Source: an uncultured Planctomycetales bacterium
Lineage (GTDB): Bacteria > Omnitrophota > Gorgyraeia > Gygaellales > Profunditerraquicolaceae
DNA length: 64,000 bases
Assembly: GCA_964542785.1 (NCBI GenBank)
Contig: CAZIUK010000001.1
Location: 332,701 to 396,700, forward strand
Reading direction: 5' to 3'
The notes under the pieces: model-generated
Told to the model about the DNA's origin: nothing
What the model saw: only the letters and a program-made list of their open reading frames with translations
Databases searched by the model: none
Made by a program: the position numbers and the translations under genes
Part shown: positions 21,850 through 31,741 of the stretch, in pieces
How positions within the stretch are numbered: position 1 is the first letter of the stretch
How the letters are laid out: every line of letters begins with the position of its first letter

Positions 21850-22023
21850 ATGTCTCTCAAGAAATATTTGACCGTACGTCAAGTTGTTGAGGAGTTGGGA
21901 TTGACTGAATATAGAATTCGTCAATTGATTCGCGAGAAACAAATCCGCGCAACTAAGATAGGGCAGTGGCGAATTAAGCCGGAAGATTTGGAAGATTTTA
22001 TCAATCGACGAACAAATCGATAA
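21850..22023 (+). CDS. Excisionase/AlpA-type helix-turn-helix DNA-binding protein
   Basis: 57 aa (MSLKKYLTVRQVVEELGLTEYRIRQLIREKQIRATKIG..). The motif LTxxQVAELLGVSxxTIYRWxxxG is characteristic of excisionase-family HTH proteins. The gene lies 18 nt upstream of hsdM. Confidence 0.6.
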   Translation: MSLKKYLTVRQVVEELGLTEYRIRQLIREKQIRATKIGQWRIKPEDLEDFINRRTNR

Positions 22024-22040
22024 ATTTATAAGGAATCATT

Positions 22041-23630
22041 ATGGTGAATAATCATTCAAAGTTATCAAAGGAACAAGAGCGCGCCGAACTGCACCGAGCC
22101 ATTTGGCAAATTGCCAATGACTTGCGTGGCAGTGTCGACGGTTGGGATTTTAAGCAATATGTTTTGGGGATGCTTTTTTATCGGTTCATTAGCGAGAACT
22201 TGACGAACTATATCAATGCCGATGAGCGTCGCACCGGCAACAAAGATTTTGATTATACAACGCTTTCCGACAAAGAAGCTGAGTTCGGGCGTGCTGATAC
22301 GGTTAAAGAAAAAGGGTTTTATATTTTACCGAGTGAACTTTTTGTAAACGTGACCAAAAAGGCACGTAACAATCCTAACCTTAACGAAACTCTTGCCGGT
22401 ATCTTTCGTGACATTGAAAATTCGGCAAAAGGTACCGACAGCGAAGATGACCTCAAAGGGTTATTTGATGACTTGGATGTAAACTCAACGAAGCTGGGCA
22501 ATACTGTTGAGAAAAGAAATCAGAGACTTGTAAAACTTTTAGAAGCCATAGGCGGACTTCGTTTAGGAGATTATTCTGGCAACACAATAGATGCGTTTGG
22601 TGATGCGTATGAGTTTTTGATGACCATGTATGCCTCAAATGCCGGTAAGTCTGGAGGAGAATTTTTCACGCCTCAGGAAGTCAGCGAGCTTTTGGCTGAG
22701 ATCGCAACCGTTGGAAAGAAGGAAGTCAACAAAGTATATGATCCCGCTTGTGGATCAGGTTCACTGCTTCTTAAGTTTGCGAAGGTTCTTGGTAAAGGAA
22801 AAGTCAGACAAGGATTCTTTGGGCAAGAGATCAATCTTACGACATACAACCTTTGCCGTATCAATATGTTTTTGCATGATATCAATTATGAGAAATTTGA
22901 CATTGCTCACGGTGATACCCTGACCGATCCAAAGCACTGGGATGATGAGCCGTTTGACGCTATTGTTTCTAATCCACCCTACTCTATTAAATGGGAAGGT
23001 GACGCCAATCCTATTTTGATAAATGACCCCCGTTTTTCACCTGCGGGTGTGTTGGCACCCAAAAGTAAAGCAGATCTTGCATTTACTATGCACATGCTTT
23101 CCTGGCTGTCTACAAGCGGGACAGCGGCTATTGTTGAGTTCCCCGGTGTTCTCTATCGTGGTGGCGCAGAAAAGAAAATCCGCAAATATTTAATTGATAA
23201 CAACTATGTTGATACGGTAATTCAGCTTCCGCCTGACCTCTTTTTCGGGACGACAATTGCCACCTGCATTATTGTTATCAAGAAAAGCAAGAAAGATAAT
23301 AAAACACTTTTCATCGATGCCTCGGCTGAGTTTGTTCGTGGTGGTAATAAAAATAAATTGACGGAAACAAATCGATCCAAAATTTTAGAATCCTTTACAG
23401 ACAGAAAAAATAAAGCGCATTTTGCGAAGCTTGTCGACAATAAGACGATTGCCGAAAATGAATACAATATTTCGGTATCGAGTTATGTCGTTGCTGAAGA
23501 TAAGCGTGAAGTAATTGATATTCAGGTGCTCAATAAAGAAATTACTCAGATTGTAAAGCGTCAGCAAGAATTGCGTTCTGCGATTGATGAGATCGTGAAT
23601 GATATTGAAGGTGCGAAACAGCATGGTTAA
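22041..23630 (+). CDS. hsdM: Type I restriction-modification system, N6-adenine DNA methyltransferase subunit M
   Basis: 529 aa. It carries the NPPY motif (SNPPYSIKW) and a SAM-binding fold, with an N-terminal HsdM-type domain. Confidence 0.85.
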
Positions 23631-29046: not shown

Positions 29047-30919
29047 TTTGTTAAGAAAATCGATTCTTCGGGTTGGAGAAGTTTCTGGAATAGAGGGTCG
29101 AAAGATTTTTGTAAAAGTAGATAAGGACAAAAACTCTTCCGATCTTTTATTAGATGGCGATGTTATTAAGAATGTGGCTGTGGGTGCCTATATTGAAATA
29201 AGAAAAGGCTTTATTAGTATTATTGGGAAAATTGATGGAGAGAAGCTTAGGGAAGATGTGTCAGAGAAGTTCATTCGCGATTATAAACAATTAAACAAGA
29301 ACGACAGGTCATTAACTGTGAGCCTTGTTGGGTATATCGGAATGGATGGTCGTTTTGAAGGAGGGATTAAAGAATTACCCTTGATTGGGAATGAGGCGTT
29401 TATCTTGACTGAACGCAAGCTTCATAGTGTGCATAACTTGCTAAAGGAAGATCTGTCTTTGAAAGTTTGTATTGCGAAAACAGATGTTGAAGAAATTCCT
29501 GTAAGCTTACCAGTAGATGGAATTTTCAATAGCCATATTGCAATTTTTGGAAATACAGGTAGTGGAAAATCGAATACTTTAGCTTCATTATATCAGGGGT
29601 TGTTTGCTGAATGCTCAAAAAGAAGGGATTTTGTCGAGAAATCTCGGTTTTTATTTTTTGACTTTAATGGTGAGTATGTAAAGGAACATTGTTTAACTGA
29701 AAACAAAAAACCCTACAATTTAAGAACTCAAGACGGTGCAGGTGATAAAATTCCTCTTTCATTTGAGGATTTTTTTGATAGCGAAACTTTATCTATTTTA
29801 ACCGAGGCAACGGATAAAACCCAGAAGCCGTTCTTGAAAAGATCGCTGAGGTTTTTTAAGAATGCAAAGTCCAAAGATAATTTTGGTGCTTATTTTAAGG
29901 GCATTCTTCAGAATAAGATAAAAAGCATTTTAAGAATGGCCAATAAAGATGTCGCTTATAAATTGCTTGATTATATGCGGGAAATTTTATCGGGCTTTAT
30001 TGAAGAAGATAATGATCTGTTTGGGGATATTGAGTTCCATGGGCTAAATAAAACATTTAAAAGACTCGATGCGGAAATTTATTTTAATAGTAATCCGGAT
30101 GCTATTGAAAATACGAAATCATATATGGCGGTAGTTTCGATGGAAGAGGATGCAATAACATCAATTCCATGTTTAGGGCAGTTTTATATCTTTCTGCACT
30201 TGCAACTTATTGATGATCTTTTAACTTACAAAGTCCAAAATGACCATATCTATCCGCTTATCAATAGATTCAAGGCGAAGCAGACAAGCATTACGCGGAC
30301 TTTTGAAATCGTAGACAACCCTGATTTTTGGAAGAATTTTAATTGTGTTGTTATTAATTTACATGATGCAAACTTGGATATGAAGAAGACCCTTCCATTA
30401 TTGATCGCAAAGAGTTTGTATGATGAGCATAAGAAGGAACAGAATAAAAAATCTTTAAATATCATAATTGATGAGGCGCATAATATTCTTTCAAAAACAT
30501 CTTTTCGCGAGACGGAAGACTGGAAAGATTATCGTCTAGAGACCTTTGAAGAGATTATTAAGGAAGGTCGTAAGTTTGGTGTTTTTCTGACAATATCGAG
30601 TCAGAGACCAAATGATATTTCTGAAACCATTATTTCCCAGGCACACAACTATTTTATACATCAATTAATCAATGAGAGGGATTTGCGCACAATAGGAAAT
30701 GCTGTTTCTTATATTGATAAGATAACTGAAGAAGCAATTCCAACATTGCCAGTTGGAACATGCGTGTTTAGTGGCATTGCTACTCCGATGCCTTTGAAGA
30801 TAAAGATTGAAGAATTATCAGAGGCGAATAAGCCCGATAGTAAAACTTTGAAATTTAAGGATATCGTTGGAGATGTTGTTGAAGAAGACAATTTGGACGA
30901 TTGGATAAATCAATTATAG
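29036..30919 (+). CDS. HerA/FtsK-like ATPase partner of the SIR2-HerA system
   Basis: It has Walker A (FGNTGSGKSNT), Walker B (IIIDEAHNIL) and the C-terminal SSQRP motif. Confidence 0.75.
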   Translation: MMDDLLRKSILRVGEVSGIEGRKIFVKVDKDKNSSDLLLDGDVIKNVAVGAYIEIRKGFISIIGKIDGEKLREDVSEKFIRDYKQLNKNDRSLTVSLVGYIGMDGRFEGGIKELPLIGNEAFILTERKLHSVHNLLKEDLSLKVCIAKTDVEEIPVSLPVDGIFNSHIAIFGNTGSGKSNTLASLYQGLFAECSKRRDFVEKSRFLFFDFNGEYVKEHCLTENKKPYNLRTQDGAGDKIPLSFEDFFDSETLSILTEATDKTQKPFLKRSLRFFKNAKSKDNFGAYFKGILQNKIKSILRMANKDVAYKLLDYMREILSGFIEEDNDLFGDIEFHGLNKTFKRLDAEIYFNSNPDAIENTKSYMAVVSMEEDAITSIPCLGQFYIFLHLQLIDDLLTYKVQNDHIYPLINRFKAKQTSITRTFEIVDNPDFWKNFNCVVINLHDANLDMKKTLPLLIAKSLYDEHKKEQNKKSLNIIIDEAHNILSKTSFRETEDWKDYRLETFEEIIKEGRKFGVFLTISSQRPNDISETIISQAHNYFIHQLINERDLRTIGNAVSYIDKITEEAIPTLPVGTCVFSGIATPMPLKIKIEELSEANKPDSKTLKFKDIVGDVVEEDNLDDWINQL

Positions 30920-30931
30920 TTTGGGTAGGAA

Positions 30932-31741
30932 ATGATTAAAAAATTCATCCGAAAACTTATTGATGTGGAAATTAAATTAGGCTTTTTGCATATTCCGGCC
31001 AAGGGCATTGAACTGATGCCGGATAAGGATGGAAAGATTCCTGTTGTGGTAGATGGCAAAGAGCATGAGTTGACTTATAACGCAAAGCATAAGCGCGTCT
31101 TTGGTCTTGTTCGCTGGTATAAGGCACATAAAACAAAAGTCGGCGATGAAGTAGTTTTTGAAAAAGGCGGATCAAAATACACTCTTTCTTTTAAAACAAA
31201 AGTTAAGGAATCACCGCTTGAAGAGGCTGAGACGCTTTTGGATATATCTGGGCTGTCATCTCAAGCCAAGGGCGATATTGTCGAGGAGCGGATCAAGGAG
31301 TTGATCGTTCTTCAGGGGCAGGGGCTGTTAAGTGTTTATCGGCCGGTTACGGATACTCAGGGCGTTGATCTGGTTGTCACAAAGGCTGGGATGTATCAGC
31401 CGATATTTTTGCAGATCAAGGGACGGTTTAATGTGGAGAAGCGCGGGTATTTCTTGATGGATATCAACAAGAAGACCTTTACTCCGCATCATTCATATTT
31501 TGTGGTTGGGGCGTATTTTAATGCGCAGAAGATGGAAATTGATGAAAACGTTTTGCTGGTGCCGAGCCTTGAGGTAGAGAAGGGAACGGTTGTTAAAAGC
31601 AAGCGTGGCGAGAGCTTGAGGATTCAAAATCACTTATCACCAGATTCGCAAGGGCGATGGGCTCCGTTTTTGATTAAGAAAATAGATTTGGCAAATAAGT
31701 TGCTTGAGAAGTTTGAGGAAATGGCGAGGTATATTAAGTAA
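30932..31741 (+). CDS. Hypothetical protein with a PD-(D/E)xK-like motif (GVDLVV...LQIKG); possible nuclease
   Basis: 269 aa. It lies 12 nt downstream of the HerA-like gene. The motif is only weakly supported. Confidence 0.35.
   Translation: MIKKFIRKLIDVEIKLGFLHIPAKGIELMPDKDGKIPVVVDGKEHELTYNAKHKRVFGLVRWYKAHKTKVGDEVVFEKGGSKYTLSFKTKVKESPLEEAETLLDISGLSSQAKGDIVEERIKELIVLQGQGLLSVYRPVTDTQGVDLVVTKAGMYQPIFLQIKGRFNVEKRGYFLMDINKKTFTPHHSYFVVGAYFNAQKMEIDENVLLVPSLEVEKGTVVKSKRGESLRIQNHLSPDSQGRWAPFLIKKIDLANKLLEKFEEMARYIK

Follow-up and report, generated by a model that had tools for sequence, protein, structure and literature searches.

Type I restriction-modification (R-M) enzymes of the EcoR124I type methylate a bipartite target as an M2S complex, while their R2M2S complex translocates and cuts unmodified DNA. 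Hotspots that carry R-M genes and SIR2+HerA have been documented in P2 and P4 (PMC9122126; PMC13586616, Moura de Sousa et al. 2026). In the members studied, SIR2-HerA is an abortive-infection NADase complex (PMC11472057, PMC11514289, PMC13434337) encoded by two genes (PMC11472057), in which a SIR2 ring sits on a HerA hexamer and infection triggers the depletion of NAD+ (PMC11472057, PMC11514289). Restriction endonucleases with a B3 domain are known as EcoRII, UbaLAI, BfiI and NgoAVII (PMC5766183, PMC3973309, PMC4267654), and in NgoAVII and CglI such a nuclease depends on an ATPase as its partner (PMC4267654, PMC4267653). Here we analysed a 64-kb stretch of DNA from an uncultured bacterium (the window; all coordinates are window positions, and L-numbers are labels of related contigs), in which an R-M system, a SIR2-HerA pair and a B3-nuclease gene follow the tail genes of a prophage. 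With a rough probability of 0.8, we read the interval 21.85-37.9 kb as an accessory arm at the right end of an integrated temperate phage of siphovirus-like type, forming a recombination hotspot with defence cargo.

Seven co-directional open reading frames (ORFs) fill the block at 21850-31741, and all of them lie where a first-pass annotation of the DNA had placed them: a small HTH_17 gene, the hsdM, hsdS and hsdR genes of a type I R-M system, a SIR2-HerA pair and the gene of a 269-aa nuclease (Table 1). The HMM scores in the table lie far above what chance would give. Upstream of this block, positions 1-21694 are occupied by phage structural genes (head protease, minor tail protein, tape measure and a J-like central tail fibre, 535 bits), with three radical SAM genes and several small genes on their 3' side. 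The locus was compared with viral contigs from IMG/VR, which can include host DNA. The J-like protein has 111 relatives in this database, and the backbone genes up to 21694 are common to the related contigs at 60-99% protein identity. The last backbone gene is shared by 26 viral contigs, and each contig that continues past it carries an ORF of 60-77 aa and then unrelated large genes. This small leader gene and the cargo behind it stand at a fixed distance from the last phage gene in 22 contigs from many samples, and at least 14 different cargo sets were found 3' of the leader. Three contigs break off right at the last backbone gene's stop codon, which is assembler behaviour at a strain-variable point. 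In the closest relative (L116, contig IMGVR_UViG_3300035527_000247), flanks of about 90% DNA identity and 80-99% protein identity enclose entirely different cargo. The break-points are sharp and fall at 22043 on the left (hsdM start) and at 30931 on the right (start of the nuclease gene).

Table 1 Features of the putative accessory arm and its borders, with the evidence for each assignment.
Feature	Position	Strand	Evidence
Last conserved backbone gene, 103 aa; left anchor of the hotspot	21383..21694	+	Homologues at 63-97% identity in 26 viral contigs
Terminator-like hairpin, predicted to close the phage late operon	21710..21746	+	15-pair stem followed by a T-run; best terminator-like site of the region; kept in five relatives
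Promoter-like site, extended -10 TGTGATAcAATGT, followed by a second ACAATGT copy	21785..21812	+	Block invariant in five HTH_17-type relatives
HTH_17 leader (excisionase-family fold), 57 aa	21850..22023	+	Pfam HTH_17 E=1e-12; TIGR01764 above cut-off
hsdM, type I N6-adenine methyltransferase	22041..23630	+	Pfam N6_Mtase 382 bits, HsdM_N 72 bits; PADLOC MTase_I E=1e-129
hsdS, two target-recognition domains	23599..24834	+	Two Methylase_S stretches; PADLOC Specificity_I E=3e-104, profile 1-387 of 388
hsdR, EcoR124I-type (family IC) restriction/translocase subunit	24824..27892	+	HSDR_N, SWI2_SNF2, T1R_D3-like and EcoR124_C domains
SIR2 NADase subunit	27958..29046	+	PADLOC PDLC04080 E=2.5e-91, profile 14-344 of 347; Pfam SIR2_2; GC 0.33
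HerA ATPase subunit	29036..30919	+	PADLOC PDLC04097 E=1e-203, profile 3-613 of 618; Pfam DUF87
269-aa B3 (DNA-binding pseudobarrel) + PD-(D/E)xK nuclease; recurrent right edge of slot 1	30932..31741	+	
Slot 2: five signal-peptide protein genes (365, 350, 228, 351 and 316 aa; one PEGA, one CsgG/FlgT_C-like)	31753..36565	+	Pfam, translations; GC 0.43
AbiGi-like protein, 301 aa, weak	36591..37496	+	PADLOC AbiGi E=1.4e-7; Pfam AbiGi E=0.0018, below cut-off
Conserved 137-aa gene closing the arm	37473..37886	-	Homologues in L116 (85%), L117, L201 and L203 at the same position and in the same orientation
End of homology to the closest relative, small hairpin GGTCTCGTCTCAGACC	37925..37941	.	Window-L116 alignment; blastn 37519-37941 at 88%

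Defence genes dominate the cargo of the relatives. PADLOC matched 22 of the 26 hotspot proteins scanned, and the matches cover type II and type III R-M, HKD+Snf2, BREX (BrxC, PglX), SIR2 and PDC candidates. Single cargo sets consist of HKD+Snf2, DUF4391 and type III R-M (L090), type II R-M together with SIR2 (L093), 5mC type II R-M with a helicase plus a second methyltransferase/restriction endonuclease set (L094), the BREX genes BrxC and PglX (L095), type III R-M (L097) and a methyltransferase fusion (L112), while the sole cargo of two contigs (L105 and L106, 10529-15247) is a 1572-aa protein without a Pfam or PADLOC match. The first-pass annotation had proposed that SIR2-HerA is prophage cargo stacked behind the type I R-M system and that synteny might reveal a variable hotspot. 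Both proposals stand, as the same last phage gene is followed by varied cargo at the same site in the 26 related viral contigs. In a separate observation from this hotspot, a LexA DNA-binding domain, an S24 peptidase and an N6/N4 DNA methyltransferase are fused in one 497-aa protein (L104, 10413-11906), which would be an SOS-cleavable methyltransferase.

Phage genes on both sides of the cargo are seen directly in L205 (contig IMGVR_UViG_3300014206_004182). There, a 600-aa large serine recombinase, encoded on the opposite strand, comes next after the cargo, with an NrS-1-type primase-polymerase and further early genes behind it. Because the L205 cargo precedes these recombinase and primase-polymerase genes, the hotspot is internal to a phage genome. 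For the window, phage DNA beyond the cargo is deduced from the conserved sequence on its right: homology to L116 is regained at 30931-31748 and again at 37519-37941, and differing DNA follows. The block is thus placed inside the prophage borders, as had first been proposed. An island at the very end of the prophage had also been proposed, and this part needs correction: the island does belong to the right arm, but the arm runs on past 31741, and the right end of the prophage most likely lies near 37941, judging from the homology break-points.

The same observations bear on a different reading, in which the host chromosome itself carries the block as a defence island abutting the prophage, the phage family integrating next to a host hotspot. 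Some viral contigs reach host genes (L104), the window includes neither the other end of the prophage nor the att sites, and the GC content of the R-M and SIR2-HerA genes (0.33-0.41) is nearer to that of the host (0.38) than to that of the backbone (0.47). The fixed spacing behind the last phage gene in the 22 contigs argues against a host island, as do the serine integrase and phage replication genes beyond the L205 cargo and the homology to the closest relative, which reappears right of the cargo and ends at 37941 in front of differing DNA. We therefore consider a host island quite improbable. Several points nevertheless weigh against our reading of the region as a phage arm with active defence cargo. 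The window does not reach the left end of the prophage with its integrase and attL, and the right border rests on homology break-points. No att-like direct repeats of 10 nt or more were found between 21.7, 31.7 and 37.9 kb. L104 runs into host-like genes, and host flank might in principle account for part of the 'viral' cargo. The 269-aa nuclease gene occurs in only 2 IMG/VR contigs, and the identity of SIR2 and HerA to the studied proteins is low (phmmer E=1e-12 to 1e-30). Furthermore, expression in the lysogen and all enzymatic activities are predicted from sequence, as is a regulatory role of the leader.

Within the phage arm, the first defence system of the cargo is a complete type I R-M system of family IC, with HsdM, an HsdS with two target-recognition domains (TRDs) and an EcoR124-type HsdR. 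HsdR matches the PADLOC REase_I profile over positions 2-975 of 976 (1191 bits). The system was placed in family IC because HsdR matches that of EcoR124I (PDB 2w00) with 863 bits over residues 28-836. Overlapping start and stop codons had been noted for the three genes and are seen in the sequence: the ATG of hsdR at 24824 falls 8 nt before the hsdS stop (24832-24834), and hsdS probably starts at the in-frame ATG at 23623 rather than at 23599, overlapping the hsdM stop at ATGGTTAA. The window hsdM shares 92% amino acid identity with the hsdM found at the same site in L111 and L040. Against L111, TRD1 of hsdS is only 46% identical, and the central conserved region of hsdS is 91% identical at the DNA level. 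By analogy with EcoR124I, the M2S complex of the window system would methylate a bipartite target, and R2M2S would translocate along incoming unmethylated DNA and cut it.

The second system begins after a gap of 65 nt. Its identity had been left open to refutation by profile searches; these returned full-length matches to the PADLOC SIR2-HerA models for both proteins, with the SIR2_2 gene directly 5' of HerA. Both also match chains of solved SIR2-HerA complexes (8yhx, 8j4u, 8wiv). The SIR2 motifs (S)TNYD and KLHGS align with the SIR2 chains 8yhx and 8j4u, the Walker A (GNTGSGKS) and Walker B (IIIDEAH) motifs of HerA align to 8wiv, and the catalytic Asn/His and the Walker motifs are intact. At the junction ATGATGGATGA the two genes overlap by 8-11 nt, the HerA start overlapping with the SIR2 stop, which agrees with the translational coupling first suggested. 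An exact-protein look-up of SIR2 returned solely the same genome in two Logan runs, and that of HerA, for which the gene caller takes the second ATG, returned nothing. If it works as its studied counterparts do, a SIR2 ring scaffolded by HerA would hydrolyse NAD+ on sensing a phage and arrest the infected cell.

Several of these proteins also gave secondary matches to MADS components, so that the HTH protein, the methyltransferase, the S subunit and the HerA-like ATPase might be taken for one composite MADS-like system. The PADLOC matches are to mad2 (E=4e-51), mad5 (E=4e-53) and mad8 (E=2e-21), and the HTH protein has a very weak NCBIfam MAD1 match (E=0.0036, 17.5 bits against a cut-off of 80). 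However, the type I R-M and SIR2-HerA models score far ahead of the mad models (432 vs 172, 348 vs 179 and 676 vs 75 bits) and a complete EcoR124I-type HsdR is present. The two modules also differ in GC content on either side of the gap between them, and relatives carry R-M modules without this SIR2-HerA pair. MADS membership was rejected on the far weaker mad2, mad5 and mad8 matches, the MAD1 score below its cut-off and the complete HsdR, and a composite system is hardly credible. We therefore treat the R-M genes and SIR2-HerA as two separate systems.

The left edge of the hotspot varies with the leader gene. DNA homology between the window and its relatives breaks at a point that depends on the leader allele: most contigs lose it at 21681, nine at about 21754, five at about 22000 and L089 at 22043. 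Three forms of leader were found, namely two HTH_17 sub-types and an RHH-like protein (MKKTTIELTEDQYFFLKEK...); 10 contigs have an HTH_17 allele and at least five an RHH-like one. L111 has an RHH leader and yet the window type of hsdM (92% identical), which implies that leader and cargo recombine independently. L089 is 90% identical to the window in DNA through the HTH gene up to 22043, the hsdM start codon, and then continues with a different hsdM (28% identity). The promoter-like site upstream of the leader is the likely start of the cargo transcription unit, and both this site and the hairpin before it are kept in relatives with the leader allele of the window. The HTH_17 gene would be an exchangeable gene at the head of the cargo operon, probably with a regulatory role. 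The RHH-like leader (MKKTTIELTEDQYFFLKEKALEL...) stands in the place of HTH_17 in L093, L094, L099, L108 and L111 (about 10440-10740).

The leader had first been called an excisionase-type protein. Its fold agrees with this, as it scores 35.3 bits against the TIGR01764 'excise' model (cut-off 28.8) and also matches PHROG 66, 'excisionase and transcriptional regulator'. The excisionase role is doubtful, since the gene is a swappable leader and is not encoded beside an integrase or att site of its own. A phage excisionase is unlikely, given that no integrase is found in the window, that the gene lies about 16 kb from the probable phage end and that it always heads the cargo operon. A dedicated controller of the R-M system is likewise unlikely, because an RHH allele replaces the leader in some relatives. 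The 'excise' and PHROG 66 matches might also point to an integrative element or satellite of its own, inserted in tandem where the phage ends and excised with the help of the HTH_17 protein, and homologues of the 269-aa protein do occur in islands that also hold HTH_17 and methyltransferase genes together with an integrase or serine recombinase gene. Such a separately integrated element is unlikely because no direct repeat links the left junction with the right end and no integrase or recombinase match was detected in the ORFs scanned within 21.85-37.9 kb. In addition, the HTH_17 slot holds an RHH-type protein in other relatives, and the DNA identity of L089 runs on without a break from the phage genes to the end of the HTH gene. 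Taken together, we regard this alternative as very improbable and retain the leader as part of the phage arm. Outside the phage family, small HTH_17/MerR-type genes lie directly 5' of type I, II or III R-M methyltransferase genes in L004-L007 and L201, next to integrases or serine recombinases, which suggests that the leader-plus-R-M cassette is widespread.

The 269-aa protein, for which a possible PD-(D/E)xK motif had been noted, turned out to be a nuclease with a B3 domain and a PD-(D/E)xK domain. It has no above-threshold match in Pfam, NCBIfam, PADLOC or PHROGs, and a comparison with PDB sequences gave no significant match, with chance matches to cytochrome b5 only. At least 172 homologues of 45-93% identity were found, in metagenome-assembled genomes (MAGs) labelled Omnitrophota, Methylococcales, Bacteroidetes and Actinomycetia, and the residues E118, D146, Q161 and K163 are invariant. 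Elsewhere its homologues lie in defence islands with type I, II or III R-M, Hachiman (HamA + helicase), SLFN/AlbA_2 or DUF3800 genes, and SIR2-HerA was never found beside the gene in those islands. In the phage lineage the gene keeps its relative position behind PDC-S46 (L116, L203), a HATPase-domain protein (L117) or a Ppl-like ATPase (L201, L202). At this gene, the window and L116 are homologous over exactly 30931-31748 (91%). We conclude that it is a shared accessory gene of a sub-lineage. The possibility that it is a universal backbone gene was rejected on its occurrence in the two IMG/VR contigs and on L205, which reaches its integrase without it.

The gene starts 12 nt downstream of HerA, and the nuclease might accordingly be a third component, an effector, of SIR2-HerA or of whichever ATPase precedes it. 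In relatives the gene is translationally coupled to other large ATPases (PDC-S46, the Ppl-like protein and the HATPase-domain protein), and the B3-nucleases of NgoAVII and CglI do work with ATPase partners (PMC4267654, PMC4267653). However, the ATPases 5' of the gene belong to unrelated families, and in L004-L008 the gene has no adjacent ATPase and stands beside Hachiman, an SLFN/AlbA_2 protein or DUF3800. Described SIR2-HerA systems consist of two genes (PMC11472057), and the GC content differs (0.43 for the nuclease gene vs 0.33-0.35 for SIR2-HerA). We regard the gene as independent of SIR2-HerA because it recurs behind unrelated cargo and in unrelated islands and has a differing GC content, and an effector role is highly improbable.

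As an independent enzyme, the 269-aa protein resembles type IIE/EcoRII-like enzymes in its N-terminal B3-like domain and its PD-(D/E)xK domain. It has no adjacent cognate methyltransferase, its neighbours differing in every context examined, and no sequence homology to EcoRII or UbaLAI. It is most likely a solitary restriction-like enzyme, in which the B3 domain would read DNA and the PD-(D/E)xK domain would cut it. We tentatively propose, at somewhat less than even odds, that it represents a family, so far undescribed, of restriction-like defence nucleases that work alone, with no methyltransferase, and that this family extends over several phyla. A free-standing homing-type endonuclease, which would cut related co-infecting or resident phages that lack the gene, is unlikely, and the solitary restriction-like reading is considerably likelier. 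If the homing reading were true, repair would co-convert neighbouring DNA, so that the gene would drive the swapping of defence cassettes at the hotspot, and break-points exactly at the borders of the gene, between two variable slots, would be explained.

Beyond the nuclease gene, 31753-37496 is a second variable slot. The five signal-peptide proteins at its start have no PHROG, NCBIfam or PADLOC match and might form an envelope-modifying or superinfection-exclusion module. The AbiGi-like gene behind them is solitary, with no AbiGii partner beside it. In the relatives this slot is filled by a single 530-aa secreted protein (L116, L203), by PDC-S02 and an IS3 element (L117) or by a 5mC methyltransferase and two other genes (L201). 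The arm is closed by the 137-aa gene, which is kept at its right end in five contigs with differing downstream DNA. No family match was obtained for this protein in profile scans, and a viral scan with it found only the already known contig. It is the only sizeable minus-strand gene of the region and includes a ParB/HTH-like stretch (RKRIAKLMTILDNLPKEFI).

The arm and its surroundings form a GC patchwork, with 0.47 for the backbone, 0.38-0.41 for R-M, 0.33-0.35 for SIR2-HerA, 0.43 for the nuclease gene and for slot 2, and 0.38 for the host. Host genes follow from 37997 on, with two ABC-2 transporter pairs, ClpB and a trehalose-6-phosphate synthase (OtsA). Between the two ABC ATPase/ABC-2 permease pairs, in host DNA just outside the prophage, lies a 221-aa gene of the PDDEXK_1 nuclease superfamily (39569-40234). 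Almost all genes of the window (1-64000) are on the plus strand, with a positive GC skew over its whole length, so that prophage and host share one orientation, presumably that of replication. In the phage late region, three consecutive radical SAM paralogues (15566-19016; 405, 361 and 389 aa, the third with SPASM) separate the tail fibre region from the small terminal genes and are kept at 73-96% in related phages. Also conserved in the relatives is a protein of 183 aa that has an Lcl_C domain at its C terminus (19322-19873; Pfam, 95 bits).

The same genome is present in Logan and JGI metagenome assemblies. A megablast of the phage part and the island against 50,697 GenBank phage records gave no match, and a tRNA scan of the window for an integration target found none. 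A ClpB scan of GTDB representatives for a close host gave at most 62% identity across many phyla, with no close genome and no empty site recovered. A scan of genome contigs with the 365-aa protein for an empty site found no relatives, and a protein look-up of the ABC transporter for prophage-free strains returned identical contigs only.

Based on these results, we propose an accessory arm placed 3' of the tail genes with its own putative terminator and promoter. Its order would be a small DNA-binding leader (here HTH_17), slot 1, the B3 + PD-(D/E)xK nuclease, slot 2, the minus-strand gene and the phage end. Slot 1 of this lysogen would hold two complete and independent defence systems, head to tail, and by analogy with studied systems the arm genes would jointly shield the lysogen, and hence the prophage, against competing phages. 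The R-M and SIR2-HerA systems are ordinary in themselves. What is new here is the phage family, which has an uncultured host, the layout of two slots with a leader gene, and a family of B3-nucleases that lacked annotation. The hosts of the phage family are uncultured, and one related phage arm was found in a MAG labelled Candidatus Omnitrophica. The two-slot locus with its anchor genes can be mined for new defence genes, and candidates at the hotspot are the 1572-aa protein, the LexA-methyltransferase fusion, PDC-S02 and PDC-S46. The B3-nuclease family, with its at least 172 members in several phyla, is a candidate stand-alone defence or homing gene.

Compared with known systems, the R-M genes share with EcoR124I the order hsdM-hsdS-hsdR, the overlapping stops and starts and the EcoR124_C domain, whereas EcoR124I is plasmid-borne, the window system is prophage cargo and the target-recognition domains of HsdS differ. 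The SIR2-HerA pair has the two-gene, translationally coupled operon with SIR2 first of the systems from Paenibacillus, Staphylococcus and E. coli (8yhx, 8j4u/8su9, 8wiv/8wld), but it is only distantly related to them in sequence and its SIR2 is shorter (362 aa vs 381-428 aa). The nuclease has the N-terminal B3-like pseudobarrel and nuclease domain of the B3 restriction enzymes (EcoRII, UbaLAI, BfiI, NgoAVII), in the architecture of EcoRII and UbaLAI. It differs from them in having no detectable sequence similarity, a motif of the form E...D...QxK instead of D...ExK and no consistently adjacent cognate methyltransferase. Its catalytic domain is nearest in fold to the homing endonuclease I-Ssp6803I and to Hjc, and not to the catalytic domains of EcoRII or MvaI.

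The arrangement as a whole, a phage arm with exchangeable defence systems, is of a well-known kind and is found here in a new phage family. As in the P2 and P4 hotspots, conserved flanks surround rapidly swapped, mostly anti-phage cassettes that include R-M and SIR2+HerA, break-points fall at gene borders, and near-identical backbones carry completely different cargo. In contrast to P2 and P4, the phage family is an unrelated one with lambda-J-type tail genes and an uncultured host, the cargo is large (about 9 kb, two stacked systems) and headed by an HTH_17 or RHH gene, and two consecutive slots are split by a recurrent nuclease gene. The concept of the phage-borne defence hotspot is thereby widened from the enterobacterial P2/P4 elements to a widespread family of environmental temperate phages.

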